From: Candidatus Marinacidobacterales bacterium
GTDB taxonomy: Bacteria > Acidobacteriota > Vicinamibacteria > Marinacidobacterales > DATDRI01
DNA: 64,000 nt
Assembly (NCBI GenBank): GCA_965226495.1
Contig: OZ245365.1
Location: 2,336,001 to 2,400,000 of the forward strand
Reading direction: 5' to 3'
The translations under genes and the position numbers were made by a program. Shown here piece by piece: positions 4,042 to 18,595 of the stretch. The notes under the pieces are model-generated. The model did no database searches. It saw only the letters and a program-made list of their open reading frames with translations, and was not told the origin of the DNA. Position 1 is the stretch's first letter, and the number at the start of each line of letters is the position of its first letter.

Positions 4042-4520
4042 ACACCGCCATTCGAGCCGCGGACCAGAGCGAGCTCTCCGAAGTGCTCGCTCTAGTCAGC
4101 GACTGTGACCTTCCCGTCGACGGTGTCGAGGAGAACCTAGCCGGTTTTCTTGTCGCCCGAGAGAATGAAACGCTGGTCGGAACGATCGGGCTCGAATGCT
4201 ATGGTGAGGTGGGTCTCCTCCGCTCGCTGGCTGTGGCATCGAGCGGACGGGGCCAGGGATTGGGTGGAAGGTTGGTAGAGATGCTACTCGGTCACGCGAA
4301 GGAGCGGGGCGTGACTACGGTCTACTTGTTGACCGAAACGGCGGGAAATTTCTTCCCGCGTTTCGGCTTCAAGAAAATGCCTCGCGTGGAGCTCGACCCT
4401 GCTCTCGACGCTTCTCGGGAACTACAAGGGGTTTGCTCAGAAACCGCTGTGGCCATGCGCTTGAGGCTCGGCCAAGGTCCCTACTCCGTGATCGCCAGTA
4501 AATCCAACAGAAACGTGTAG
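4038..4520 (+). CDS. arsN2: arsenic-resistance GNAT N-acetyltransferase (ArsN2-like)
   Basis: GTG at 4038 overlaps the arsM stop (GTGA); 'GLLRSLAV...RGQGLG...YLLTETA..FF.RFGF...C...AVAM'. Confidence 0.8.
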   Translation: MNTAIRAADQSELSEVLALVSDCDLPVDGVEENLAGFLVARENETLVGTIGLECYGEVGLLRSLAVASSGRGQGLGGRLVEMLLGHAKERGVTTVYLLTETAGNFFPRFGFKKMPRVELDPALDASRELQGVCSETAVAMRLRLGQGPYSVIASKSNRNV

Positions 4521-6580
4521 GCGAGCGCGGTCTCCTGGTGACGCTTGAATCGTCCCGACGGCCCGCCGTGACCGGCGTCCATGTTGGTTTTCAATATCAG
4601 AACGTTGTCATCGGTCTTCAGGGCTCGTAGCTTCGCCACCCACTTTGCGGGCTCCCAGTACTGCACTTGGGAATCGTGGAGCCCGGCGGTGATCAGCAAG
4701 TGTGGGTAATCTTTAGCCTCGACGTTGTCATAGGGCGAGTAGGACAGCATGTAGTCGTAATATTCTTTGTCATTGGGATCGCCCCACTCGTCGTACTCGC
4801 CGGTGGTAAGGGGAATGTCGGGGTCGAGCATCGTTGTAACCACATCGACGAAAGGTACATCCGCGACCACTCCTTCGAAAAGCTCGGGTGCCATGTTTAC
4901 GACCGCACCTATCAGCAGGCCGCCGGCGCTTCCGCCCATCGCGAAAAGCCGGTCTTTACTCGTGTAACCTTCCGCGACCAAATACTCGCCACAGTCGATG
5001 AAGTCGGTGAAAGTGTTTTTCTTCGTGAGAAGCTTGCCATTTTCGTACCATTGACGTCCGAGCTCCTGGCCGCCACGAATATGGGCGATGGCGTAGGCGA
5101 AGCCGCGCTCCAGGAGGCTCAACCGCGACGAGCTGAAGGTGGGGTCCATCGACATGCCATAGGAACCGTACGCGTAGAGGAGTAGCGGCGCGCTCCCGTC
5201 CTTTTTCGTGCCCTTGGGGAAGACGATGGAGATGGGCACCTTCTTGCCGTCTCTCGCCACGGCGTGGAGACGCTCGGTGCGGTAGTCGGTGGAGTCAAAA
5301 TCACCGACCACCTCGTCCTGCTTGAGCAAAATTTTCTCCTTCGTCACCATGTCGTAATCGTAGGTCGACCACGGAGTGGCCATGGATGAATAGCCGTAGC
5401 GTAAGACCCGGCTGCCGAGCTCCCGGTTCGTGCTGGTGTAGGCGAAATAGGCCGGCTCTCCGAAATCCAGGTAGTGTTCATGACTACCGTCCCAAGGAAT
5501 GACGCGGATGTGATTGAGTCCGTCCTCGCGCTCGGTCACCACCAGGAAGTCCTGGAAGAGATCGTAGTCCCTCAAGAATACGTCGGTGCGGTGGGGGATG
5601 ACTTCGCGCCACTTCTTCTTGTCGGTGTTGGCGAGGGCAGTTTCCATGAGCCGGAAGTTCGGTGCTTCCCAGTTGGTTCGGATATAGAACTTGTCGGCCA
5701 GGTGCTCGACGGAATACTCGTGATTCGGCTCCCTCGGTAGGATAACCTTGAACTCACCGGTCGGGTTCGCCGCCTCGAGGTAGCGATACTCGGTGCTGAG
5801 CGTCTGGGAGGTGCCGATAATGAGGTACTTCCGCGACTTGGTCCTCGAGATGAAGCAGCTGAATTCTTCATCGGCTTCCTCGTATACCAAGGCATCTCTG
5901 GTCGGATCGGTGCCTAGGACGTGCCGATAGATTCGATCGGATCGCAGCGTCTCGGGGTCCTGCTTGGTGTAGAAGATCGTCTTGTTATCGTTGGCCCAGG
6001 CGACGTTCCCGGTCACGTCGGGAAGGACGTCGTCGTACATCTCCCCGGTTGTGAGGTTCTTGAAGCGCAGCGTATAGAACCGTCGCCCGACGGTATCGAC
6101 GCTGAAGGCGAGAACGTCCCGGCCCGAGCTCACCGACAGGGTGCCGAGCGAGAAGAAGTCGTGCCCCTGGGCGAGCTCGTTGGCGTTGACCATGATCTGC
6201 TCTGGCGCGTCGAGGGAGTCTTTCTTGCGGCCGTAGATGGCGTATTCCTCGTCTCCTTGATAGCGGTAGTAGTAGTAATAGCCGTCGTACGGGAAGGGGG
6301 CGGACGCGTCGTCTTTCTTGATGCGCCCCTTGATCTCCTCGAAGAGTGCGTCCTGCAGCTTCTCGGTGTGTTTCATAACGCCGTCGAGATAGGCGTTCTC
6401 GGCGGTTAGGTAGTCGATGACTTCTGGGTTTTCCCGCTCCTTCAGCCAGTAGTAGTTGTCGGTTCTCACGTCCCCGTGCATTTCGAGCTGATGGGGGACG
6501 ATCTTGGCTTTGGGAGGCGTGATTGTGTCCTTGGGTTCCACCAGGCTCAAGACTAGCACGGCCATTAGTAGAAGTCGCAA
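4481..6580 (-). CDS. ptrB: oligopeptidase B (S9A peptidase) with signal peptide
   Basis: DNYYWL, GGSAGG nucleophile, DSQVQYWEPAKWVAKLR, AGHGG. Confidence 0.95.
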   Translation of the reverse strand: MRLLLMAVLVLSLVEPKDTITPPKAKIVPHQLEMHGDVRTDNYYWLKERENPEVIDYLTAENAYLDGVMKHTEKLQDALFEEIKGRIKKDDASAPFPYDGYYYYYRYQGDEEYAIYGRKKDSLDAPEQIMVNANELAQGHDFFSLGTLSVSSGRDVLAFSVDTVGRRFYTLRFKNLTTGEMYDDVLPDVTGNVAWANDNKTIFYTKQDPETLRSDRIYRHVLGTDPTRDALVYEEADEEFSCFISRTKSRKYLIIGTSQTLSTEYRYLEAANPTGEFKVILPREPNHEYSVEHLADKFYIRTNWEAPNFRLMETALANTDKKKWREVIPHRTDVFLRDYDLFQDFLVVTEREDGLNHIRVIPWDGSHEHYLDFGEPAYFAYTSTNRELGSRVLRYGYSSMATPWSTYDYDMVTKEKILLKQDEVVGDFDSTDYRTERLHAVARDGKKVPISIVFPKGTKKDGSAPLLLYAYGSYGMSMDPTFSSSRLSLLERGFAYAIAHIRGGQELGRQWYENGKLLTKKNTFTDFIDCGEYLVAEGYTSKDRLFAMGGSAGGLLIGAVVNMAPELFEGVVADVPFVDVVTTMLDPDIPLTTGEYDEWGDPNDKEYYDYMLSYSPYDNVEAKDYPHLLITAGLHDSQVQYWEPAKWVAKLRALKTDDNVLILKTNMDAGHGGPSGRFKRHQETALAYTFLLDLLAITE

Positions 6581-6615: not shown

Positions 6616-7629
6616 TCAGCGGCGCCAGCTCAGTCCGACGAAAGCCCCTCCGTTGCGGCGGCAAAGCTCTCGCATCAAGGTCGCGAACCGTACACCGGTG
6701 TTCTCCGGAAATCCCGACTGAGAGAACATGACCGGGAAGCCGATACCGTGGATTCGAACCAAGCGATTCCCTTGCGAATCTTCCTTGTTGATGCGATCGA
6801 CGGTCTCGACGACAGCGTCGATAGAGCGTCCGGTGAACTCGTCGCCGAAGACGTAGAGACTAATCTTCTTGTCGGGCGCGGCGTAGCGCCTAATGGCGCG
6901 CGTAATTCCTTCCACCGGGCTGCTGTTGCTGAAGGGAGACCATGTCCGGAGCCGGTCGAGAATCACTTGACGCCTCCCCGGAGTGTCCGGAATCCATCTG
7001 CCAGCGTAGTTGCTGAACATGTGCTGGCCCATGTCGTTCATGACCTGCAGACCCTTCACCTTGGGATAAATGTCGAGCGTCTCTTTCATCTTTCGGTTGA
7101 CCATGGACCAGGCGTAGTTGTGCATGCTGCCCGACGTATCGATGATAAAGATGACGTACTCACTGTCGACGGGTATCCCTCCGACGGTGGCGTCCTTGGG
7201 ATCGCGTCGATGGGCGAGACCGAGAAGCCGTTTCATCTCCTCGTTCAGCTCTTGACGTGCGGCGAGTAGGCGACCCTCCACGATATCGCTGACTTCCGAG
7301 AGCTCCTCGCTGGCCGCGTACTCCCCTCGAATCTTGGAGAAATCACCGCGGAGGCGAGCAATTCGGACGCGCTCCTTGGATACTTGCTCTTCCTTGGAGA
7401 TGAGCTTCCGATTCAGAACGTTCGTCTCGCCGCGGATCTCGTAGAGCTCTTCTTGAAGGCGGGCGACCAGGCCTTCGAGCTCGATCCGTAGCGCCTCGAG
7501 GGCGCGGGGCTCACCGATCTTGGTCAAGACCAACAACAGAATGATGGCGCCGAAGCCGCAGCAAATACAATCCAGGAAGGACAGGCTGAAGCCCGCACTA
7601 TCGCTTCGTCGTTTGGCCCTTCTCTTCAT
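6616..7629 (-). CDS. ExbD/MotB-like TM anchor + coiled coil + VWA domain protein
   Basis: 'SLSFLDCICCGFGAIILLLVL' TM with Asp; coiled coil; MIDAS IIDTSGSM; YVFGDE. Confidence 0.8.
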   Translation of the reverse strand: MKRRAKRRSDSAGFSLSFLDCICCGFGAIILLLVLTKIGEPRALEALRIELEGLVARLQEELYEIRGETNVLNRKLISKEEQVSKERVRIARLRGDFSKIRGEYAASEELSEVSDIVEGRLLAARQELNEEMKRLLGLAHRRDPKDATVGGIPVDSEYVIFIIDTSGSMHNYAWSMVNRKMKETLDIYPKVKGLQVMNDMGQHMFSNYAGRWIPDTPGRRQVILDRLRTWSPFSNSSPVEGITRAIRRYAAPDKKISLYVFGDEFTGRSIDAVVETVDRINKEDSQGNRLVRIHGIGFPVMFSQSGFPENTGVRFATLMRELCRRNGGAFVGLSWRR

Positions 7630-7631
7630 CC

Positions 7632-8723
7632 CTACGGCCAGTTCCGGGAAGGGCTCATGAAGGAGCCTCCGGTTGCGAGAGCGAGCTTCCAGTAGGCACT
7701 AGATGCCATCGGATCGCCCTCCATGGGAAAAAGAATGACGTTCATCGGTACCTTCGATTGAAGCGCCTTCACTGCTTCGTTGAAGAGCTTGATGCGGTCC
7801 TTGCCGGATATCGTGCTGCGCCGGGAGGGTGACCGACCCTGAGTGGGGAGGCCGTCCACGAGCAACATGATGTTGTCGGGCGCGGGTCGCAGCGTTCGGA
7901 TCGATTGAAGCGCTTGATACAGATTCGTTCCCCCCTGCGGCACGACGCTGCGAAGCTGCTGCACCGTTTCGTCGAGCACTTTTCGGTCACCGCCGTCCAG
8001 CCAGTCACCGTCCGTGCCCGGCATCACCGAGCTGACGCTGGTGTTGAAGGTGTAGATCTGAAAGCTCGAGTCCCTGGGGATTTGTGTGGTCAACCAATCG
8101 ACGGTGGCCAGCGTTTGTTGCCACTTGTCGGCGCGGATCTTGACGTGGTCGGGAAGGTTCCGGCGTCGCACTACGTTGACGATCGTCGACGCAAGCATGC
8201 TCGCGGATGCATCGACCAGGAACAGAATCCGGCGGCCTCCGACCTTGAGACCGGTGAGGTATTGCCGGTCTCCGTCCCCGACGAATGTTCGAATTTTGTC
8301 CCCGGGAGTCTCTTCGCTTGGAGCGGCTGCCGACAGTCGCTTGACGTCTTCCTCGAGAGATTTCAAATCCGCCTTCAGACGGTTGATGTGCTCTCGTTGT
8401 GCGACGGTTGAGTCCTGATAGGTGGCAAGTTCGACTCGGATCTCCTCGAGGGTTTCGATGAGGCGCCGGGAAAGTCCGGCGGTGACGACGTTTTCCTCAT
8501 CGATCTCGCGAAGCGAGTTTTTGACCTCGACGAGGTTCTGGTAGCCCTCGAGGACTTCTTCCTCCAATCGGTTGACTTCGCCCTGAAGCTCTCCGGTCAT
8601 GCGTCCCGAGATCCTGCCGAAGCTGGCGGTAACGATCATGAAGAACAGAACCACCGCGCCGAAGCCACAGGTCATGGCGTCCAAGAAGGACAGGCTGAGA
8701 ACGTTGATCCTACGGCGTGCCAT
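7632..8723 (-). CDS. ExbD/MotB-like TM anchor + coiled coil + VWA domain protein (paralogue)
   Basis: 'SLSFLDAMTCGFGAVVLFFMI'; LVDASASM; GGTNL; LLVDGLP. Confidence 0.8.
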   Translation of the reverse strand: MARRRINVLSLSFLDAMTCGFGAVVLFFMIVTASFGRISGRMTGELQGEVNRLEEEVLEGYQNLVEVKNSLREIDEENVVTAGLSRRLIETLEEIRVELATYQDSTVAQREHINRLKADLKSLEEDVKRLSAAAPSEETPGDKIRTFVGDGDRQYLTGLKVGGRRILFLVDASASMLASTIVNVVRRRNLPDHVKIRADKWQQTLATVDWLTTQIPRDSSFQIYTFNTSVSSVMPGTDGDWLDGGDRKVLDETVQQLRSVVPQGGTNLYQALQSIRTLRPAPDNIMLLVDGLPTQGRSPSRRSTISGKDRIKLFNEAVKALQSKVPMNVILFPMEGDPMASSAYWKLALATGGSFMSPSRNWP

Positions 8724-10173
8724 CCGAATCCATCACGGCGATGAGGCGCAGCTCGACGCCGGGAGTGCCGACTCTCAAGCGATCTCCCGCGGCGAGAACC
8801 GCCTTCGTTTCGATCCGTTTTTCGTTGAGAAAGCAACCGTAGCTGCTGTGATCCTCGAGCAAGACTCGATCGTCGAGACGATAGATGCTGCAATGGGAAT
8901 GTGAGATTCCGGCGGTCGATCCGGCTCGCTCTGCCAGGTCAATACCGCGCCTTCCCTCCGGCACCGTCAGTCCTATTACGAAAGGCTCCGACGTGATCGA
9001 GTGGGCGAGTCCTTCATATAGAACGTGTGTCGGTGCTCGCGAGCCTTGAGGGCGGTCCGTGACGACCGGAGCCGGGGGGCCCACGACGTCAGCGCTTCCT
9101 GGAATGGTATCGCTCTGTGTGATGCGGGTGACGAAGGGTAGCTCTTCTCCTGCCTCTCCAGGGTGAGCGGAGCGAAAGTGTTTGACCAACTTCAGGGCAC
9201 CTTTCGCACCGGCCGCGCCGGGGAGAGCCACTAGGTTCTCATTGGCCAGTCTCAAGAACTCCTCTAGCCCGGGAAGCTCGGTCATTCGTTTCGACAAGAG
9301 CAGGGTCGCTTGCTGCCCGGCGGGTTCCAGTGCTTTGGCGAGCCGCGCGAGGGTTTCATAGAGCGGTTGGGCACAGGCCACAATCTGCTCGCGGGTGATT
9401 TCGATTGCGTGATCCTTCCCCGCGGCCTCCATGACGAGAGTGACTCTGTCCTCTCGTTGAAGCTCGTCGAGCCATCCTGGCAGGCGAAGGTAGAGAGCTT
9501 GCTCGCTCTCACCTCGATGAAGGGGGTCGAAACGGGTGGTGCGGACGAAAACTTGAGCAATGAGCCTCACCCAAGCGTCGAACAACGCGACGAGACCGAC
9601 CTCGTCGTTTACCTCGATGCGTGCCCGCTTCACTTCGCCTCTCACTTGTGGGTCGCGCTCGACTCTCGTGGCCACCGTTCGATGCAGGTGAAGATCCAGG
9701 TGAATGGCCACGGGTGTCGGGCTGGACGCCTCGTCGGAGAGCCCGGACAGAGTGGAGGAAGCTACCGAAGAATCGATCATTCCCGTTACAGGCATCCCGC
9801 ACGCGCGGGCGATTCCTAAGACGAGTCCCAACTGTTTCTGCGAAAAACATCCGGGTATTGCCAAAACGACGTCATCGGTTCGTTCCCGAGTGGACTCCCA
9901 AATCTCTTTGAGATGGGCGTGAGCTAGATCGGCGCGCCGAAGGGTTTTGGGAAAAGGCCGAGGGAGGGGTGTCGTATCGAGCTCTTCCCAGAAGCGGTCG
10001 TATGTCCACCGCGGTTTCAGCCGGGCGCGGCTCGCCGCGTTACGTCCGGTGAGGAGGGTTTCTCCGTCCAGGACGACGACACCAGGACTAGGAGAAATGG
10101 CCCCGGTTTCCGGATCGGAATCGCGCACCGCTTCGATGCCGATGTCGTTGAGCTCTATCGCCAAAACACTCAT
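8710..10173 (-). CDS. degenerate Hsp70/actin-like fold + C-terminal FHA domain protein
   Basis: 'VVLAIPGCFSQKQLGLVLGIARACGM' resembles DnaK VITVPAYF..QR; C-terminal 'GISHSHC...LEDHSSYGCFLN...LAAGDRLRVG' is FHA. Confidence 0.7.
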   Translation of the reverse strand: MSVLAIELNDIGIEAVRDSDPETGAISPSPGVVVLDGETLLTGRNAASRARLKPRWTYDRFWEELDTTPLPRPFPKTLRRADLAHAHLKEIWESTRERTDDVVLAIPGCFSQKQLGLVLGIARACGMPVTGMIDSSVASSTLSGLSDEASSPTPVAIHLDLHLHRTVATRVERDPQVRGEVKRARIEVNDEVGLVALFDAWVRLIAQVFVRTTRFDPLHRGESEQALYLRLPGWLDELQREDRVTLVMEAAGKDHAIEITREQIVACAQPLYETLARLAKALEPAGQQATLLLSKRMTELPGLEEFLRLANENLVALPGAAGAKGALKLVKHFRSAHPGEAGEELPFVTRITQSDTIPGSADVVGPPAPVVTDRPQGSRAPTHVLYEGLAHSITSEPFVIGLTVPEGRRGIDLAERAGSTAGISHSHCSIYRLDDRVLLEDHSSYGCFLNEKRIETKAVLAAGDRLRVGTPGVELRLIAVMDSDGTP

Positions 10174-10178
10174 CGCGA

Positions 10179-10976
10179 CTATGAAACTCGAAGATGTTGG
10201 ATGAGGTGTTGGTCAAGGTAGGTCTCGGTGTCGGCTACCAGCCGTTCCTGTTGAAGCTGCAGCTGGTGAAGGAGGAACATGAGCACGATACTGATCAGGA
10301 GCGCGATAAAGGTGGAATTGAAAGCAACACCCAGACTTTGAGTGACGCCCGCGATGTCTCCTTCAACTGCCTTGTGCGCCTGCCCGAGGGCCTCGCCGAT
10401 ACCGCGGACGGTCCCGATGAATCCGATCGAAGGAATGGCCCACGCGATGTAGCGAACCATCGACAGCTCGGAGTCCAATCGCTCCGACTCCGCCTCGGCG
10501 ACGCCGTGAGCGGTCGTAGAGACGTCTTGAATGTTGCGTGTGGCACCGAAGCGGGCCAGCGCCGAGAGCACAGCGCGCGGAAGCAGCAGACGTTGCTGGG
10601 AATCCGGCAGGGCTTGGATCTGACGTGCATACTCGCGCGCATCTTCCGGCAAGATCTTGGTTCCCTCGGCGACGGGAACCAGATCTAGCTCGAGCAGTTT
10701 TTTCTCGCGTGCAGCGTCCGTCGCCTTGTGCGACATGATGGCCATGGCCCATAGCATCAAGACGAAACAAGATTCTTGCTCGAAGTCGCGGATGATCACG
10801 AAGACCGATCGCTCCGGAACATAGTTTTCGCCGGTCTCCATGAGTGCTTGTTGTTCAGCTAGGATGTAATCCGCTCGCGGACGAACAACGAGGACGTAGA
10901 TGGCATGCACGATGATGATGGCGACGATCAAGGACACGGTTTGGAACACGAACTCCACTGGGTATGCTTTCTTCAT
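10179..10976 (-). CDS. MotA/TolQ/ExbB proton-channel family protein
   Basis: 'WAIPSIGFIGTVRGI' and 'LGVAFNSTFIALLISIVL' TM pair, plus two N-terminal TMs. Confidence 0.9.
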   Translation of the reverse strand: MKKAYPVEFVFQTVSLIVAIIIVHAIYVLVVRPRADYILAEQQALMETGENYVPERSVFVIIRDFEQESCFVLMLWAMAIMSHKATDAAREKKLLELDLVPVAEGTKILPEDAREYARQIQALPDSQQRLLLPRAVLSALARFGATRNIQDVSTTAHGVAEAESERLDSELSMVRYIAWAIPSIGFIGTVRGIGEALGQAHKAVEGDIAGVTQSLGVAFNSTFIALLISIVLMFLLHQLQLQQERLVADTETYLDQHLIQHLRVS

Positions 10977-10990
10977 TCGCCAAGCACCTT

Positions 10991-11224
10991 TCAGATGTCT
11001 ACCGGGAACGAGATGGCGCTATCAACGGGAACCTTCTCCGAGGGGGTGAAGGACTCCAGCTCTTCTTCTTGTTGTGCTTTTGTTTTGGAGTCCTTCTCCT
11101 GTGAAGAGGGCTCCTCCGCTTCTTTGCTTTCAGGCGGTTCACTAGGTGGGGGTGACTGTTGGGTTCCCATCACCGCGCCACCCGCGATCGCGGTGGCCAG
11201 GATCGTATAGAGCAAATATCTCAT
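10991..11224 (-). CDS. small exported protein
   Basis: Signal peptide, acidic/Pro linker, C-terminal FTPSEKVPVDSAISFPVDI; GAGG RBS. Confidence 0.75.
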   Translation of the reverse strand: MRYLLYTILATAIAGGAVMGTQQSPPPSEPPESKEAEEPSSQEKDSKTKAQQEEELESFTPSEKVPVDSAISFPVDI

Positions 11225-11557: not shown

Positions 11558-13975
11558 TCATTCGGCGTATCGGGCTATTCTAAAGCCCAAATCGGGCCGT
11601 GGCTTATTGCCGTAGTCGCGATAGCTGAGCCGCAATTCGGTAACGCTGCCGTCCATCCAGCTCGACCCGCGGATCGCGTAGAGCTCGCCCTCTTTTGGCC
11701 CCAGTGGATCCTTGGCTATTTCGGCTCCGGATGGATAGATGGTGTAATAGTCGTGCATCCACTCCGCAACGTTCCCGCCCAAGTTCAATATTCCTAGCGG
11801 ATTAGGCGGAAAGCCCTCCGCCGGAGCCGTTGCGGGGTAAGAATCGTCGTACTGGGGGAGTGTGGTCGGGACCAAGCCGCGTGCAGACGCGTCGGCATAG
11901 TTGCCGGAGTTGGCGGCCACTGGGAGAGAGTCGCCCCATGGGTACTTTCGTCCCGCTTGACCGTCTGGGTAACGGGCGACGCGAACCCACTCGGCTTCCG
12001 TCGGCAGACGGTAACCCATGGTGGGCGGCACCACTGCGACGAGGCTTCCCCCGCGTGAGTCGTATGCCGGAGGCCACGATTCTTTTTGGCTCAGCCAATT
12101 GCAGTATCGCGCCGCGGCCGACCAGGTGACGCGGACGACGGGATGGTGATCGATATCCAAGTTCAGCCCGGCCACGCGTCCCGAACGATGCTTCGGATCG
12201 AGCTTACGAAACTGTTGGTTGGTCACTTCCTGCACCGCAAGATAATAACGTCGCGACAGCTCGACCTCGCGGAGGGTCTCGTTGGCACGCCGTCCTGGTT
12301 CGCGTCTCGACGCTCCCATGCGGAAACGGGCGGGCTGGATGAGACGTAACTGGTGGCCTTCCGAAGTGGTGATCACAGCCGGCGTCAATGCCGCCTTGGC
12401 TTCTTCGAGCGTTCTCAGGGTTACTTCGATCGATTGTGGAAAGCCTGGCCTTGGTGTGAGCGTGGTGGTAAACGCTTCGTAACCCTCTTTGCGTACTTCG
12501 ATCTGTTGGGGCAGGGCGACGAGGCTTAGTGTTTGGTTAGCCGAGCCTCGCTCCTCGCCATTCACATACAACACCGCATCCGGCGGATCGCTGACCACTT
12601 CCAATTTTCCGAGCAGAGGGGCGAGCTCGATACTCAGGGTTTGCTCACTCCCGGATTCGATTCGCGCTTCCTGTGTCTGCGTTTCGTAGCCAGCTCGGGA
12701 CACTTCGACTTGATGGCCCACTCTCGGCTGCAAGTCGACCGTCAACGGAGTCTCTCCGCTATAGACGCCATCGACTGTCACGGTGGCTCCGGGTGGGTTG
12801 CTCTCGACGGTCAGCAGTCCGTCCGCCACCGTGAGCCGAGCAGTGGGGAGAGTCTGCGCCTCACCCGCGACCACGGCGAGTCCACTTCGATACGGTTTAT
12901 GTCCTTTCAGCATAAGCGTGAAAGTGTGAGCGCCTTCCATGAGATCCGCCGTTAATGGCGTGCTGCCGATCCCCAGGCCGTTGACCTCCACGGTTGCGCC
13001 CGGAGGTTGGGATGTGAACGAGATAGCGCCCCAGCGCGGTTCGAGCACCGCGTCGAGAGTCTCGGTGCTTCCGGCGCCCTCAATGTGCACGCGGGTCAAG
13101 AAGTCTTTGTGGTTTTCGGCGCGGATCAACACTTCGTGCTCGCCAGGGGGAAGCTCTAGTTCCGCGACCGGGGTGACGCCGATCTCCTCGCCGTCTATCG
13201 TTACGACTGCGCCTTCCGATGGCACCGTCGATAACACGAGGACGCCGGGCCGTTTCGTGAGGACGAAGAGCAGGCGTTGGTTCCGCTCATCGGTGACGGT
13301 CACCTCCGTCTCGACCGGTCGATAACCTTCCTTTTCGATGACCACGGTGTGTTTGCCTTGTCGAAGCATGTATCGCCCACCGAGCTCGAGTTTGAAATAG
13401 GTGTTTTGGAAATCGATTTGCGCTTCCCCGGGCTCGGTTTCGACCAGGACCGATCGCGCGGTGAAGACGAAATACGCTGCCGCTGCCAAAAGAGCGAGAG
13501 ACGTCCAGAGAACAACCTCACGGGTGCGGATGGGGGGACGCTCCCGGTGGGTAGGCCCGACGCGGACTGGCTCGAACGCAATCGGTTTGACCGCTGCCCC
13601 GGAGATATCGGACGTCCCGGGCATCCCGGAAGGGGGGTGTTCGGTGGGAGGAAGGACCGGCGGATCGGTTTTCTGCGCCGTCTTCCATTTCTCGACGCGG
13701 AGGCGAATCTGCTCCTCTCCAAACTCGACGCTAACCTGCATCTTCCCGATCCGGACGACATCTCCGTCTCGCAGCCACCGAGATGTTTTCAGTAGCGTGC
13801 TATTGCAAAGGATCGGTAAATCGGAGCTCGCCGGCTGTACGAAGAGCTCTCCGTCGGCGGACCCGATATGGGCGCTGGTCTGGGCTCCGGGACTCCTGGG
13901 AAGCGCGAGCGGAAACTCGTCGGGTCTCACCCGTCGCGTGCCGCTTTCATCAACGAGGTAAACGGGTAGCATCAA
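11558..13975 (-). CDS. FHA-like + TM + PEGA repeats + SUMF1/FGE-sulfatase-like domain protein
   Basis: Repeated 'S.PPGATV.VNG...G.TPL' PEGA units; C-terminal FRMGAS, EVTNQQF, HPVVRVTW..AARYCNWLS, YRLPTEAEW, GNVAEW, GFRIAR. Confidence 0.9.
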   Translation of the reverse strand: MMLPVYLVDESGTRRVRPDEFPLALPRSPGAQTSAHIGSADGELFVQPASSDLPILCNSTLLKTSRWLRDGDVVRIGKMQVSVEFGEEQIRLRVEKWKTAQKTDPPVLPPTEHPPSGMPGTSDISGAAVKPIAFEPVRVGPTHRERPPIRTREVVLWTSLALLAAAAYFVFTARSVLVETEPGEAQIDFQNTYFKLELGGRYMLRQGKHTVVIEKEGYRPVETEVTVTDERNQRLLFVLTKRPGVLVLSTVPSEGAVVTIDGEEIGVTPVAELELPPGEHEVLIRAENHKDFLTRVHIEGAGSTETLDAVLEPRWGAISFTSQPPGATVEVNGLGIGSTPLTADLMEGAHTFTLMLKGHKPYRSGLAVVAGEAQTLPTARLTVADGLLTVESNPPGATVTVDGVYSGETPLTVDLQPRVGHQVEVSRAGYETQTQEARIESGSEQTLSIELAPLLGKLEVVSDPPDAVLYVNGEERGSANQTLSLVALPQQIEVRKEGYEAFTTTLTPRPGFPQSIEVTLRTLEEAKAALTPAVITTSEGHQLRLIQPARFRMGASRREPGRRANETLREVELSRRYYLAVQEVTNQQFRKLDPKHRSGRVAGLNLDIDHHPVVRVTWSAAARYCNWLSQKESWPPAYDSRGGSLVAVVPPTMGYRLPTEAEWVRVARYPDGQAGRKYPWGDSLPVAANSGNYADASARGLVPTTLPQYDDSYPATAPAEGFPPNPLGILNLGGNVAEWMHDYYTIYPSGAEIAKDPLGPKEGELYAIRGSSWMDGSVTELRLSYRDYGNKPRPDLGFRIARYAE

Positions 13976-16353
13976 ATCTCTTCCTCGCAGCGAACGACGA
14001 GTGGGGAAAGTGAGTTGCCGGCTTCGACGACGAGTTTCAGGCGAACATCGCGGTAGCCTGGCCGGCTTCCAACGACCGTGTAGGTGCCCGGACGAAGCTG
14101 GAGGGTATGTTGATCGAACCTACCCAACCGGCCGACTTTGTAGACGACGATTTCGGTTTTATTGTCCGATTGGAGTTGAACGGGAATCAGCGTCGACGCG
14201 TCGCGGATGGTTTTGTCGAGCGTACGTCGTTGTTGTTCGAGGCGCGGCCCCGACGGCTCGATTTGAGATGCGGTCTCGAGAACAGCAGACGCGGTTTGAA
14301 GCACCTTGATGTCAGAAAGGCGCTCGGCATTCTTGATATGGAAATCCAGTTGATCCGAGAGCGCGGCCCGACGGTCGGTCTTCTCCTTGCCCTCTTGAGC
14401 GAATCGAATCGTAGCGTCCAACTCGAGGACCGCGTCGTAGTGCTCGGCCGCCTTGTGCCACTCTTCTCTCGATTCGAGGTCCGCGGCGTTCTCGCGATGG
14501 AGGGCTATTACCTGAAGCCGCAGACCTTCTTCTGCTTGCGCGATCCCTTCTGCAACCTGGGCGGCGGCGCGCGGTTTGATACTGCCGGCTCGCTGGAAGG
14601 CTTCGCGCGCGGCTCGATAGTCTTCACGGTTGATAGCGGAGACACCCTCGGACATAGCCGCACGAAAGGCACCATCGGTCATGGCTCGTTCGACGCGGCC
14701 CAATGCGTCCCTGGCTGACCGCGACGCAGAGTCTAAAGAGAGTCCTTTCTTGTAGCTGTCAGCCGCTTGGTCTAGATCGCCATTCCTTTCGTGCTCCGCA
14801 CCCTGCGCGAGCAATGACACGACTTCATTGGAGACGCCCGCTCGCCTTAGACCGGCGAGCGCGGTTCGATTGTTGGGATCGACCTGCATGGCAAGCTCGA
14901 AGGCGACCCTGGCCGCGCCCGAGTCACCGCTGGCGAGGGCTGTCTGTCCATCGGCCAAGGCTTGACGTAAGACCTCTACGGCTCGAGAGGACAAGGTCTG
15001 AAAGCCGGCGACCGCCTCTTCATAGGCCTCGAGAGCGTGCGCATACTCGCGACCGCGGAGTTGATCGTCACCCCGATCGAGGGCGGCCATCGCGGCGGGG
15101 TATTTTTCGCCGCCCCAAATCGAGACGCTCTTTGCCTGGAGCTCGTCGCGCCACCGGACGGCGGCCTCGCGTGCTTGTTCGGCGAGTGTCTTAAGCTCCG
15201 CTTCCTGTCGCAGATCGGAAACGGCCGAGGGCTGGACGTTCTGAATTCGCTCAGGGGGGGGAAGGGATGACGCCGGTCCGTGGGACGGATCACCCTGCAT
15301 AGACTGCCTGGCCGGCGACCCGCTAGGTGCCCAACGGGGGAGGAAGACGAAGACGGCGATGGTGGCGAGAATGAGGACCCCGAGGGTGGCAATTGTCGTC
15401 CATCCCAAACCGCCGCCGGAGGATACTCTCGATCGAATCGGCGCAGCTCCGGGCGGGGCTGCCGGTTTGATCTTCTCGATGCGCGGCGGTGGCGTGACGT
15501 TTATTTTCGATGGCACTCTCGACGGGACTGCCGGCTTGGCCCTTGGAGAAATTGGCCCGACGACCGACTTCCTGATCGACGCCAGGGTTGCCTTGACCTC
15601 TGCCATATCGTTTGGACGGTCTGCGGGGTCGTCGCTGAATAAGGACGCCAATAGCGACGTGAGCTCCTCCGGCAACTGTGGGTGATCGCTCAAGAGATCA
15701 TAGAGGAGAGCGCCTAACGCATAAATGTCGTCGGCGCGCGTCGGCTCGTCGCCGGCGCGTTGCTGCGGGCTCATGCTGGAAGGCGATCCCCCACCGGAGA
15801 TTTCCGAAGGGGTCGACCGCGAGTCGAGCAACCCGGCGATGCCGAAGTCGAGCAACTGTGGCTCGCCGTGTCGATCCAACAAGACGTTGGCCGCTTTGAG
15901 ATCGCGGTGTACGACGCCTTGCCGGTGCGCGTAATCGAGCGCATGCGTCACCGGTAGCAGTACGTCCAAGATCTCTTCTAAGGGATGACCTCGAAGCTGA
16001 CCAATGTCTTCTCCCTCGACGTATGCCATGGAGATGAAGCGGACGCCTTCTTCGTCGTGCACGTCGTAGACGCGTACGATGTTCGGGTGAACGAGGCCAC
16101 GAGCATTCCGGCACTCGCGTTTGAGAAGCGCTACCCGTTCGTCGGAGTATCCCTGCGCATCATCCGGCGCGAGCACTTTGACGACGACCTGCTCTTCGAG
16201 CTCCTGGTCCTCGACCAGCCAGACTTCGCCCATTCCTCCCTGGCCGAGAGGACGGATTAGGGTAAAGCGTCGGCCGAGTGATTGGCCACGGGCCAGCGCC
16301 GCCATGGAGCTCCGGTCGCGCGCCTCAGGGATTGGATGGCCCCGGCTCGGCAA
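13972..16353 (-). CDS. membrane Ser/Thr protein kinase with extracytoplasmic TPR-like repeats
   Basis: GQGGMGEV, VVK, HRDLKAAN, DFG; TM 'IATLGVLILATIAVFVFL'; helical repeats; start may be ATG 16305. Confidence 0.9.
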   Translation of the reverse strand: MPSRGHPIPEARDRSSMAALARGQSLGRRFTLIRPLGQGGMGEVWLVEDQELEEQVVVKVLAPDDAQGYSDERVALLKRECRNARGLVHPNIVRVYDVHDEEGVRFISMAYVEGEDIGQLRGHPLEEILDVLLPVTHALDYAHRQGVVHRDLKAANVLLDRHGEPQLLDFGIAGLLDSRSTPSEISGGGSPSSMSPQQRAGDEPTRADDIYALGALLYDLLSDHPQLPEELTSLLASLFSDDPADRPNDMAEVKATLASIRKSVVGPISPRAKPAVPSRVPSKINVTPPPRIEKIKPAAPPGAAPIRSRVSSGGGLGWTTIATLGVLILATIAVFVFLPRWAPSGSPARQSMQGDPSHGPASSLPPPERIQNVQPSAVSDLRQEAELKTLAEQAREAAVRWRDELQAKSVSIWGGEKYPAAMAALDRGDDQLRGREYAHALEAYEEAVAGFQTLSSRAVEVLRQALADGQTALASGDSGAARVAFELAMQVDPNNRTALAGLRRAGVSNEVVSLLAQGAEHERNGDLDQAADSYKKGLSLDSASRSARDALGRVERAMTDGAFRAAMSEGVSAINREDYRAAREAFQRAGSIKPRAAAQVAEGIAQAEEGLRLQVIALHRENAADLESREEWHKAAEHYDAVLELDATIRFAQEGKEKTDRRAALSDQLDFHIKNAERLSDIKVLQTASAVLETASQIEPSGPRLEQQRRTLDKTIRDASTLIPVQLQSDNKTEIVVYKVGRLGRFDQHTLQLRPGTYTVVGSRPGYRDVRLKLVVEAGNSLSPLVVRCEEEI

Positions 16354-17551
16354 GCGGTGTCTCGGAGTTGGGATCTATGGGGAGTCCGGTTTCGGAAGCA
16401 AAGATTTTGCGAAGGAGATTACGCCAAGTCGTGTATTGGGTTTCGACGGATCCGGTTAGTCGGGTGACCTCGCCTTCCATATCGATGAGCAGGGGAGCGA
16501 TGTCCGCATCCAAGGAGGCGGCGAGCTCCTTGAGAGCCTCGCGGTGCATCTTGGCTTCTTCCATTTTGGACATCCCGTCGGCCATGACCATCCCGCCGAT
16601 GACGGACACACCGCCCCTTCTGGTGGCGATTCCACCGGCCATGGCTCCAACGCCGGCGAGCATTCTGATCCAGGCTTCTTTCCTCATCCGAGCAAGCCTG
16701 ACCTCTTCTTCGTAGCTGAAGGCTCTCCAGTCGTCATAGGGTGCGTCCATCTTCAAGTAGAAGTTGGCGTAGAACTCGTTCAGCGTGTCGATGAACATGA
16801 AATCCCGCTCGCGAATGTCGTTGACGCGCACCATCATCGGATCGCCGTGCGCCGGGAGCTTCTCGATCGAGTACCGCCCTTTCTTGTCGACTTTCAAATA
16901 TTCCTCGAACGGAGTCGGTGCTAGGTCCACCGCGAACTTGAGCTGTGACAGCAAGCGCACTTGCTGGATGTCTTTTTCGTCGAGCTTCCGTCGCTTCTCG
17001 AGGATATCGTTGGCGATCTCGTTATAAAGAAACTGATAAGGGTCTGGTTGCTCGGCGATACCCCTCTTCTTGGTGTAGGCGCTCACGCTGGCTTCTCGCT
17101 TGTACCGTTTCTTCAACCAACTTTGGCCGCGAGCGTCTAGGACGTGGATCTCGACCTCGAGGTTCTTTCCGTGCGACTTCCGGATGGTGCCGGACACCAT
17201 GACGTCCACCGCGTTCGCGGCGGGGACCACGCGAACCGCGCCCCAGTAACCCGTTGACTGAAGCGTTTGCTTCAACTGGAAGGGGATGTATCGAGCCTCG
17301 GATTTCCTCACGTCCGGAAAGACACCCTTTTCTTCCAAGTCGAAGAGGGCCTCCTCGTCTTCCGGCAAGCCGGGGTCGAACACGTGGATGCCGACGTCAA
17401 GAAGTTGTTCCTCGGGAATCTCGGTTTGCGCTTGGATGAGCTCAACCGGATCCTTGTTGCCGGCGTGTGTAGGCGAGGCGGTCAGGAACCCCAGCGCGAC
17501 AAAAGCCACAGGCACTATCAGTATTCGGGGTATGGAAAGTCGGCTCGGCAT
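16325..17551 (-). CDS. exported hypothetical protein with Gly-rich hydrophobic hairpin
   Basis: Signal peptide ending THA; 'MLAGVGAMAGGIATRRGGVSVIGGMVM' glycine-zipper-like segment; co-oriented in the operon. Confidence 0.75.
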   Translation of the reverse strand: MPSRLSIPRILIVPVAFVALGFLTASPTHAGNKDPVELIQAQTEIPEEQLLDVGIHVFDPGLPEDEEALFDLEEKGVFPDVRKSEARYIPFQLKQTLQSTGYWGAVRVVPAANAVDVMVSGTIRKSHGKNLEVEIHVLDARGQSWLKKRYKREASVSAYTKKRGIAEQPDPYQFLYNEIANDILEKRRKLDEKDIQQVRLLSQLKFAVDLAPTPFEEYLKVDKKGRYSIEKLPAHGDPMMVRVNDIRERDFMFIDTLNEFYANFYLKMDAPYDDWRAFSYEEEVRLARMRKEAWIRMLAGVGAMAGGIATRRGGVSVIGGMVMADGMSKMEEAKMHREALKELAASLDADIAPLLIDMEGEVTRLTGSVETQYTTWRNLLRKIFASETGLPIDPNSETPLAEPGPSNP

Positions 17552-17554
17552 CGT

Positions 17555-18595
17555 TTAGCTCCCTTTCTCGGTGCCTCGCTTATAGGCTCGGTACTCCTCC
17601 CATAGTCTCTCACGAAGTTTCGGGTCGTCTTCTTGCGTGGCCGCTTCGCGCAGCTGCCTGGCTACGATGTCATCGCCGCTACCGTCGCCAACGTCGGGGG
17701 GGACACGACCGTTGTCCGACTCGCCCTCGGCCCCTCCGACGGGAGCGCCTGGAGACGAGTCCACCGGCTCTCCGTCGGGGGCATCCGGTGATCCGCCGGT
17801 GCCACCCGCGATCTGTGTTGCGCGTCGTTCAGCATCGGCACCGTCGGCAGAGTCGGCACCGCCGTCGCCTACTCCACCCGAGGATCCCCCGGCCCCGCTG
17901 TCACCACTCGCCGCCGCGGCTGCTTCTCGCTGCTGCTCCAGGAGCTCTTGTTCGCTCAGGAGCAGCTTGTCGAACTCGCTGAGTGACGAGTCCAAGTCTT
18001 TATCGAGGCCGGCGCGTTTTTCTTCCGTCGTCTTGGGCCCGCCCCCGCCGCCTTTCGAAGCACCGCCGGGTTTGGCGCCCGACGGCGGTGTTCCTCCGGA
18101 AGTCTTTCCCGTCGCACCGGCGTTACCCGATTTACCTGCGCCAGCGGAGCTCGGTTTGGACGCGGTCGCCTCACCCTTGGAGGACTCCCCGGCTCCAGGC
18201 TGCGCCCCGGCTTCGGCGCTCGTTTCGGTCCCGGAGGATGAGCCGTCCTCGCTATCTTCGCCTTTCGCACCGTCTTCACTGGAGCTCGTGCCTCCGGCCT
18301 CCGTTCCTTCTCCCTTTTTCGTTTCGCTTGGGGTCGAAGGTTCGCTCGATGACGGTGTGGAAGGTGGCGTCGTGGATGGTGGCGCCGGCGAAGGTGAAGG
18401 CTTTGAGGGAGGGCTCGGCACCGACGGGGGCGAGGGTAAAGAAGGTACCGAAGGGGTCGATGAACGACTCGAGCATCCCGCCACAACGAAAAGCAGAATG
18501 CCTAAGCCAGCCAGTCTCACGGTCCCGTCAACGCTCTTTGTGACGTTCATTAGATGCACCTTTCCAGTGTGGACGCCCCATCGGAACACCCTCAT
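17555..18595 (-). CDS. low-complexity lipoprotein with folded C-terminal motif
   Basis: Lipobox VVAGC; long P/S/G/E disordered linker; C-terminal 'DDIVARQLREAATQEDDPKLRERLWEEYRAYK'; start uncertain. Confidence 0.7.
   Translation of the reverse strand: MRVFRWGVHTGKVHLMNVTKSVDGTVRLAGLGILLFVVAGCSSRSSTPSVPSLPSPPSVPSPPSKPSPSPAPPSTTPPSTPSSSEPSTPSETKKGEGTEAGGTSSSEDGAKGEDSEDGSSSGTETSAEAGAQPGAGESSKGEATASKPSSAGAGKSGNAGATGKTSGGTPPSGAKPGGASKGGGGGPKTTEEKRAGLDKDLDSSLSEFDKLLLSEQELLEQQREAAAAASGDSGAGGSSGGVGDGGADSADGADAERRATQIAGGTGGSPDAPDGEPVDSSPGAPVGGAEGESDNGRVPPDVGDGSGDDIVARQLREAATQEDDPKLRERLWEEYRAYKRGTEKGS

Follow-up and report, generated by a model that had tools for sequence, protein, structure and literature searches.

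Flagella, TonB-dependent uptake, the upkeep of the envelope by Tol-Pal, gliding and type IX secretion all draw their power from ion-driven 5:2 motors. A computational study has predicted a second family of helix-tethered vWA proteins, 'TPH-vWA', whose members, in the sections that describe them, co-occur tightly with tolQ homologues, mostly as heterologous pairs and with no tolR or exbD gene, and have in their 'transpore helix' a conserved Asp, modelled with AlphaFold 3 against a ring of threonines; the same sections place the family mainly in Proteobacteria and Verrucomicrobia, and give an SHLS motif with its His as the mark of side-binding transducers of the TolA/TonB type (PMC12204202; Mol Biol Evol 2025). 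Here we describe a locus in a 64,000-nucleotide stretch of the genome of a Candidatus Marinacidobacterales bacterium (Acidobacteriota; assembly GCA_965226495.1, contig OZ245365.1, positions 2,336,001 to 2,400,000; hereafter the window), in which two adjacent genes encode paralogous membrane-tethered VWA proteins, VwaA and VwaB, and a third, close by, encodes a channel subunit resembling MotA, TolQ and ExbB. With TPH-vWA, as set out in those sections, the locus shares the one-helix tether of the vWA domain, the heterologous pair, the lone tolQ-like gene, the helix Asp, the Thr ring and the lack of an SHLS motif; it is a member of the TPH-vWA/TolQ-like class already predicted in print, assigned by these features as described for a family whose seed is from Idiomarina. 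A search of the literature from 2024 on for TolQ-like proteins, vWA and the transpore helix returned only that paper and no follow-up. We consider it likely that the VwaA/VwaB heterodimer replaces ExbD, TolR or MotB as the axle of the adjacent MotA/TolQ-like pentamer, in an ion-driven motor of the 5:2 type.

Both VWA genes lie on the minus strand, where a first-pass annotation of this DNA, made from the sequence alone, had proposed two paralogous ExbD/MotB-like subunits with VWA heads:

VwaA, 7629..6616, minus strand: 337 amino acids (aa); basic N-terminus, transmembrane helix (D20, C24), coiled-coil stalk, and VWA domain with the metal ion-dependent adhesion site (MIDAS) D164-T-S166-G-S168 plus D263.
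VwaB, 8723..7632, minus strand: 363 aa; paralogue of VwaA with transmembrane helix (D15, C19), helix over residues 8-133, and VWA domain with MIDAS D171-A-S173-A-S175, T266 and D290.
VwaA transmembrane segment, 7522..7590, minus strand: FSLSFLDCICCGFGAIILLLVLT; Asp codon 7570-7572, invariant Cys codon 7558-7560.
VwaB transmembrane segment, 8625..8699, minus strand: LSLSFLDAMTCGFGAVVLFFMIVTA; Asp codon 8679-8681, invariant Cys codon 8667-8669.

The proposed paralogy is borne out by BLASTP (E 1e-14, 29% identity across 196 aa). Read directly from the sequences, both proteins have the basic N-terminus and the hydrophobic helix with SFLD-x3-CGFGA that had been described at first pass (MKRRAKRRSDSAGFSLSFLDCICCGFGAIILLLVLT in VwaA and MARRRINVLSLSFLDAMTCGFGAVVLFFMIVTA in VwaB), and the long coiled coil followed by a VWA domain with an intact MIDAS is equally upheld, by a stalk of about 100 residues, by structural matches to VWA domains and by invariant MIDAS residues, with DTSGS of VwaA encoded at 7126-7140 and DASAS of VwaB at 8199-8213. 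The AlphaFold 2 model of VwaB (mean predicted local distance difference test score, pLDDT, 79.2) consists of one helix spanning residues 8-102, another spanning 107-133 and then an alpha/beta domain (pLDDT about 90) resembling the solved VWA domains of TFIIH p44, CLCA1 (6pyo), BatB (3ibs) and CMG2 (1shu), with E values of about 1e-6 to 1e-7. Pfam matched VWA_3 and VWA_2 in VwaB and no family in VwaA, and an NCBIfam search of VwaB gave only coiled-coil noise (SMC). The fold, the DxSxS motif, the Thr or Ser and the distal Asp that characterize a VWA domain with a MIDAS are all found in the pair, each domain is tethered by one N-terminal transmembrane helix, and no lipobox was seen on reading both proteins. 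The MIDAS residues are unchanged across 48 relatives of VwaA (D164, S166, S168 and D263) and 46 relatives of VwaB (D171, S173, S175, T266 and D290); where VwaB has the MIDAS Thr, VwaA apparently has a Ser, the invariant S236, judging from two alignments compared by eye. Together with the other features of VwaA and VwaB, this conservation is far beyond chance.

Relatives at E≤0.001 numbered at least 7931 of 8000 scored candidates for VwaB and at least 8000 for VwaA; against clusters at 50% identity, VwaA matched 1382 at E≤0.001 and 339 at E≤1e-30. Scanning one genome per species, we confirmed 216 related loci and analysed the best 80, spread over Acidobacteriota, numerous Gammaproteobacteria, Desulfobacterota with their relatives, and one Verrucomicrobia bin, with VwaA identities of 53-70%. 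Culturable species that carry the system include Microbulbifer echini, Pseudoalteromonas denitrificans, Seongchinamella unica and Peristeroidobacter soli. Both paralogues are present in these loci, save in the Verrucomicrobia bin, which has a solo VwaA (L063:9001-10002), and in cases at contig edges. In a tree of 143 sequences (FastTree, local support only), the A and B clades part with 100% support, which, with their low mutual identity, makes the pair heterologous in the sense of TPH-vWA; the duplication thus predates all sampled lineages, and the pair is ancient and retained.

We located the N-terminal helix by means of an anchor that specifies neither Asp nor Cys, with DxSxS required 100-175 residues downstream, in 488 N-termini (78+1 VwaA and 71 VwaB from the loci, and 114, 117 and 107 database proteins); 58 more sequences, either fragments without the N-terminus or without the anchor, were uncounted. 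The transmembrane Asp, on whose invariance across homologues the first-pass reading had been staked, occurs in all but two of them (486 of 488): P0257 has Ser, and P0166 has Thr in an N-terminus that does not start with Met. Cys at Asp+4 (C24 in VwaA, C19 in VwaB) is found in every one of the 488; one mis-anchored, over-long open reading frame (ORF) in the raw count, L012, carries SFLDCVCCGFGA and is therefore scored as bearing both residues. Among the transmembrane cysteines flagged as unusual at first pass, it is this one that proves invariant, in both paralogues, while the others are variable. The invariant Cys shares a helix face with the buried Asp, four residues on, at a position where ExbD has Val or Leu. 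There is no His in the helix of VwaA or VwaB, and the SHLS motif is thus lacking in both, in keeping with the conserved, His-free helix Asp of TPH-vWA.

A basic region followed by a hydrophobic stretch is also how an ordinary cleaved signal peptide begins, and the first-pass annotation had itself raised this possibility, under which the mature proteins would be soluble periplasmic VWA proteins. We regard it as exceedingly improbable. The N-terminal segment is a strongly conserved 19-residue helix that runs straight into the stalk, and its F, L, D, C, G, F, G and A are conserved between phyla and between paralogues, unlike the residues of signal peptides; no conserved small-x-small site follows it in the alignment, where the next residues vary, and in the model the helix is unbroken from residue 8 to 102. 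A prepilin-type signal was considered separately and dismissed by eye, no Gly being conserved before the Phe.

The Asp lies near the cytoplasmic end of the single N-terminal transmembrane helix, as it does in ExbD and TolR, and the claim that it sits where ExbD carries its own Asp holds as a matter of geometry: a median of 11 residues separates the last Lys or Arg from the Asp in VwaA and VwaB, compared with 13 in ExbD, and the next charged residue follows the Asp after 17 (VwaA) and 19 (VwaB) residues, compared with 18. In these respects, a basic N-terminus and an Asp at equal depth, the pair resembles the partner subunit of ExbB-ExbD and TolQ-TolR, and the channel protein resembles theirs in matching PF01618 and TolQ and in having both pore threonines. 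By contrast, VwaA and VwaB match neither the ExbD/TolR family profile (PF02472) nor its periplasmic ExbD domain, having instead a long coiled coil and a C-terminal VWA head, and no TonB/TolA-type third protein was seen here. With MotA-MotB and PomA-PomB the locus has in common a channel and an Asp-bearing single-helix partner that reaches the periplasm, but Pfam scans found neither the MotB_plug helix nor the peptidoglycan-binding OmpA-like domain of MotB, and a search of the whole genome (94.8% complete) for MotB_plug at E≤0.1 returned nothing.

The channel gene lies upstream of the pair:

MotA/TolQ/ExbB-like channel subunit, 10179..10976, minus strand: 265 aa; GTVRGIG (T189, R191) and AFNST (T222).

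Its product (10976..10179) matches Pfam PF01618 at 8.2e-14, gives weak NCBIfam matches to TolQ/ExbB and has a tail of only about 20 residues. GTVRGIG, with T189, and AFNST, with T222, are invariant in 20 orthologues, GTVR and AFNxT are conserved at 95% or more in 60, and in alignments the two threonines correspond to those of GTV and ATA in the organism's own TolQ and ExbB and in solved TolQ (8odt; E 0.0046), giving the conserved channel Thr ring expected of TPH-vWA. Both pore threonines are described as essential in TolQ/ExbB in the relevant part of PMC12204202. An invariant Arg stands two residues past the first pore Thr (GTVR, 10404-10415, minus strand), after the GTV, where TolQ and ExbB instead carry Trp or Leu; this Arg could pair with the axle Asp.

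The tight co-occurrence with a tolQ/motA-like gene that defines TPH-vWA extends beyond the window, since a hidden Markov model (HMM) of the channel found a MotA-like ORF upstream in 63 of the 66 related loci that have at least 3.3 kb of upstream sequence; the three misses are L007, at a contig edge, L063, the lone VwaA, and L071 (L071:7901-10026, Peristeroidobacter soli), which has only the VwaB-VwaA pair. Nor is there a tolR, exbD or motB gene nearby, in the window or in the related loci: an ExbD HMM run at E≤10 on the ORFs of all 80 gave no match, compared with 31 matches in 30 control ExbD loci. The organism's genome contains three PF01618 genes, of which one adjoins one ExbD gene, another adjoins two and the window's adjoins none, and three PF02472 matches, none of them inside the window. 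Direct reading of the other transmembrane helices encoded in the same operon (those of a kinase, a PEGA-FGE protein and a small protein, all listed below) found no Asp.

Modelled as a complex, VwaA and VwaB gave interface scores (interaction prediction score from aligned errors, ipSAE) of 0.72, 0.70 and 0.72, against 0.00 for the best control. Of 80 solved complexes 58 attained this ipSAE mark, as did 2 of 110 mismatched pairs, counts that serve only as a rough benchmark because our own alignments were fed into the model; the runs share at least 67% of their contacts, with partner pLDDT of at least 73. In the predicted interface, the two chains run parallel and in register as a coiled coil with heptad spacing (A 44-128 with B 39-127), and a second contact pairs the C-terminal strands of the two VWA domains (A 327-336 with B 352-362); the model suggests that VwaA and VwaB form a parallel in-register heterodimer. 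The length of the stalk is held constant: 141-145 residues separate the transmembrane Asp from the MIDAS Asp in 71 of 72 VwaA sequences and 150-158 in all 69 VwaB sequences, and across 106 more distant VwaA representatives the distance is 124-159, mostly 133-146. Two different axle paralogues with one channel protein are also the make-up of the Myxococcus gliding motor AglR-AglQ-AglS; AglQ and AglS are short TolR-like proteins, with the VWA domain on a separate outer-membrane lipoprotein, whereas here it is fused to the axle. The gliding system that surrounds that motor uses a VWA adhesin, CglB.

From these observations we infer a motor in which two N-terminal helices, each with a buried Asp, would sit inside a pentamer of the channel protein. 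Ions passing the Asp/Thr site would make the axle rotate or shift, and the coiled-coil stalk, rigid and of a constant length near 100 residues (some 15 nm), would convey this movement to a periplasmic dimer of VWA heads, where the two intact MIDAS sites would grip an acidic ligand. The heterodimeric, Asp-bearing axle imagined by the first-pass annotation draws support from the near-invariance of the Asp, its ExbD-like depth, a partnerless channel with pore threonines and the heterodimer model. The check that the annotation had proposed, a profile comparison of the N-terminus with ExbD and MotB_plug, came out negative, and this is among several results that weigh against an axle. Pfam searches with the first 50 residues of VwaA and VwaB found no match at E≤10; a profile of 143 N-terminal sequences, compared by hhalign with an ExbD profile of 33 sequences (from the organism's own genome and loci L081-L110), gave a probability of 4.5% over nine hydrophobic columns that left the two Asp residues unaligned; and with the ExbD N-terminus alone the probability was 6.9%, neither value improving on a reversed-profile control, at 2.2%. 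No sequence homology of VwaA and VwaB to ExbD, TolR or MotB could thus be demonstrated, and because the profile comparison is negative, 'ExbD-like' is a working analogy drawn from geometry and gene context. In the complex model, the confident contacts of the heterodimer start only past the membrane helices; L063 and L071 have neither a channel gene nor a gene for the small secreted FPxDI protein described below within 9 kb; and for every member of the class, this one included, the evidence for a motor is computational throughout.

An alternative is that VwaA and VwaB are anchored periplasmic VWA proteins of the same envelope complex that stay outside the pore, with the Asp/Cys/GFGA helix serving for packing, for metal binding or for contact with the exterior of the pentamer in the manner of TolA and TonB, and with the channel working alone or with an unseen partner. 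An undetectable profile similarity to ExbD, an invariant Cys and a small-residue GFGA face that are both foreign to ExbD, membrane helices that lie outside the confident contacts, and VWA genes with no nearby channel gene in L063 and L071 all suit such an arrangement. We nonetheless think it unlikely: the operon offers no other Asp-bearing candidate and the genome no unpaired ExbD gene, the SHLS His is missing from both helices, and the depth of the Asp matches ExbD. We know of no MotA/TolQ/ExbB-type channel that works without an Asp-bearing partner.

The putative axle and its channel are part of a nine-gene envelope operon that is conserved across phyla. Searches with the window's proteins (tblastn) recovered a common gene order in the window and the related loci, namely the lipoprotein of 346 aa, the exported protein of 408 aa, the Ser/Thr kinase, the PEGA-FGE protein, the small ORF, the channel gene, the gene for an Hsp70-like/FHA protein (missing from ten related loci), VwaB and VwaA. 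Besides the three genes listed above, the features are:

Lipoprotein, 17555..18595, minus strand: 346 aa; lipobox VAGC, a long disordered region rich in Pro, Ser, Gly and acidic residues, and a conserved helical C-terminus.
Exported protein, 16325..17551, minus strand: 408 aa; a lipoprotein in orthologues, with a Gly-rich hydrophobic C-terminal segment and no Pfam family.
Hanks-type Ser/Thr kinase, 13972..16353, minus strand: one transmembrane helix and a periplasmic TPR region.
Membrane protein, 11558..13975, minus strand: 805 aa; FHA-like cytoplasmic N-terminal domain, one transmembrane helix, five PEGA domains and a C-terminal FGE-sulfatase domain of the PorK/GldK type.
Small secreted protein, 10991..11224, minus strand: 77 aa, directly upstream of the channel gene; signal peptide, acidic low-complexity linker and the invariant tail FxP[ST]Ex[IV]xxDxxVxFPxDI-stop.
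Cytoplasmic protein, 8710..10173, minus strand: 487 aa, between the channel gene and VwaB; fold of the Hsp70 nucleotide-binding domain and a C-terminal FHA domain.
Oligopeptidase B (Peptidase_S9_N and S9), 4481-6580, minus strand: adjoins VwaA on its downstream side.

The oligopeptidase B gene lies outside the cluster, since none of the 80 related loci has it at that position. The 487-aa protein is predicted with a pLDDT of 90.1 and resembles Ssz1 (6sr6; E 8e-19) and many Hsp70 nucleotide-binding domains at template modelling scores of about 0.7, with a Pfam FHA domain at 2.1e-9; because its phosphate-loop positions read ELNDIG and HLDLHLH in place of the glycine-rich loops of Hsp70, ordinary ATPase activity is improbable. 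In the 805-aa protein, the cytoplasmic domain at the N-terminus matches the FHA domain of the 487-aa protein (hhalign 95.7%, E 8.6e-9), and the FGE domain matches both solved FGE (2.8e-17) and solved PorK (5.8e-10). An axle with a long periplasmic extension, encoded together with a protein of the FGE-sulfatase fold, is also found in GldL-GldM and PorL-PorM with PorK/GldK, but the GldM-type periplasmic domain is missing here and no type IX genes were seen, leaving a resemblance only. The combination of Hanks kinase, FHA readers, FGE-fold periplasmic domain and lipoproteins presumably recalls, as a domain set, the threonine-phosphorylation sensor pathway of type VI secretion; no type VI genes were seen in the examined part of the window.

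The 77-aa ORF looks like noise but is a real conserved gene and a constant partner of the channel gene. Of the 62 loci whose sequence extends 700 bp or more upstream of that gene, 58 have an ORF with a first version of the tail pattern, [FY]xP[ST]Ex[IV]xxDxxVxFPxDI-stop, which ends just before the channel gene, mostly 0-50 nt off; a slightly wider pattern has exactly one match in 64 of the 80 loci and none in the other 16. In 12 of these 16 the region is cut off by a contig edge; L063 and L071 have no channel gene either; and L044 and L050 have variant tails that end in DLSVSFPVDI. In a six-frame search of the organism's own 6.34-Mb genome, the only match to the tail pattern is at the 77-aa ORF. 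The encoded proteins combine a signal peptide with a variable, mostly acidic linker; the database contains 20 close relatives, unnamed or called 'hypothetical', in which no Pfam domain was found, and a literature search for 'FPVDI' turned up only unrelated papers. With its three invariant acidic residues and free C-terminus, the FPxDI tail is, from its sequence, an obvious candidate ligand for the MIDAS sites of the VWA heads. It could equally be a candidate ligand of the periplasmic TPRs of the kinase, since TPR clamps bind C-terminal peptides.

Around the likely motor, the operon supplies a membrane-bound Ser/Thr kinase, a pair of FHA-type readers, a scaffold of PEGA and FGE domains, two lipoproteins and the small acidic protein that is secreted, and the kinase/FHA layer probably gates the motor. 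Taken further, the nine genes may together specify a kinase-gated, ion-driven force transducer spanning the envelope whose load is encoded in its own operon, the FPxDI protein held by both MIDAS sites; the work of the motor would then be to pull on, or turn, a flexible tether in the periplasm, and the axle Asp-x3-Cys facing the channel Arg of GTVR would form an ion-coupling site unlike those of Ton, Tol and flagellar stators. We put forward this fuller scheme tentatively, as one that is doubtful in its entirety.

The distribution of the operon bears on a different idea of its role, as an anti-phage or conflict system comparable to Zorya, in which a MotA-like motor with an unusual partner senses envelope damage and kinase/FHA signalling leads to the response. 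Despite identities of 53-70% across phyla, VwaA is rare in the organism's own phylum, being found at E≤1e-20 in 5 of the 151 genomes sampled, and such patchiness would be in line with a conflict system, as would a weak PADLOC match of the channel protein to ZorA (E 0.0013). Yet the window copies are nearest to other Acidobacteriota in the tree, and within each paralogue the sequences of this phylum group together, so that recent transfer is not required. The operon contains no ZorB, ZorC or ZorD and no nuclease or other effector; PADLOC recognised no defence system, returning nothing for VwaA and only weak coiled-coil matches to LmuB for VwaB (E 0.0025-0.0054), and the hallmarks of Zorya are not found. 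Zorya has a ZorA with a long tail, a ZorB with a peptidoglycan-binding domain and the effectors ZorC and ZorD; the tail of the channel protein here has only roughly 20 residues. We therefore consider a conflict role quite improbable. A survey of conflict systems describes MoxR-vWA systems, and 'MotA' does not occur in the available part of its text (PMC7159879; eLife 2020).

Set beside the published description of TPH-vWA, the locus differs in several ways. The word stem 'Acidobacteri' is absent from the main text of that paper, and the present locus belongs to the Acidobacteriota; its main text likewise contains neither 'kinase' nor 'formylglycine', and 'FHA' only as FhaC, whereas the operon here has proteins of all three kinds; and the invariant Cys and the small FPxDI protein, both found here, do not form part of the TPH-vWA description in those sections (PMC12204202). 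The locus extends the predicted TPH-vWA class to Acidobacteriota, with a motor core that in this lineage always travels with the kinase/FHA layer, and supplies concrete residues (the Asp, the Cys, the MIDAS and the channel Arg) together with a candidate ligand, the FPxDI tail. If the motor is real, a widespread further class with an integrin-type, metal-dependent head would be a new route by which membrane energy reaches the periplasm or outer membrane.

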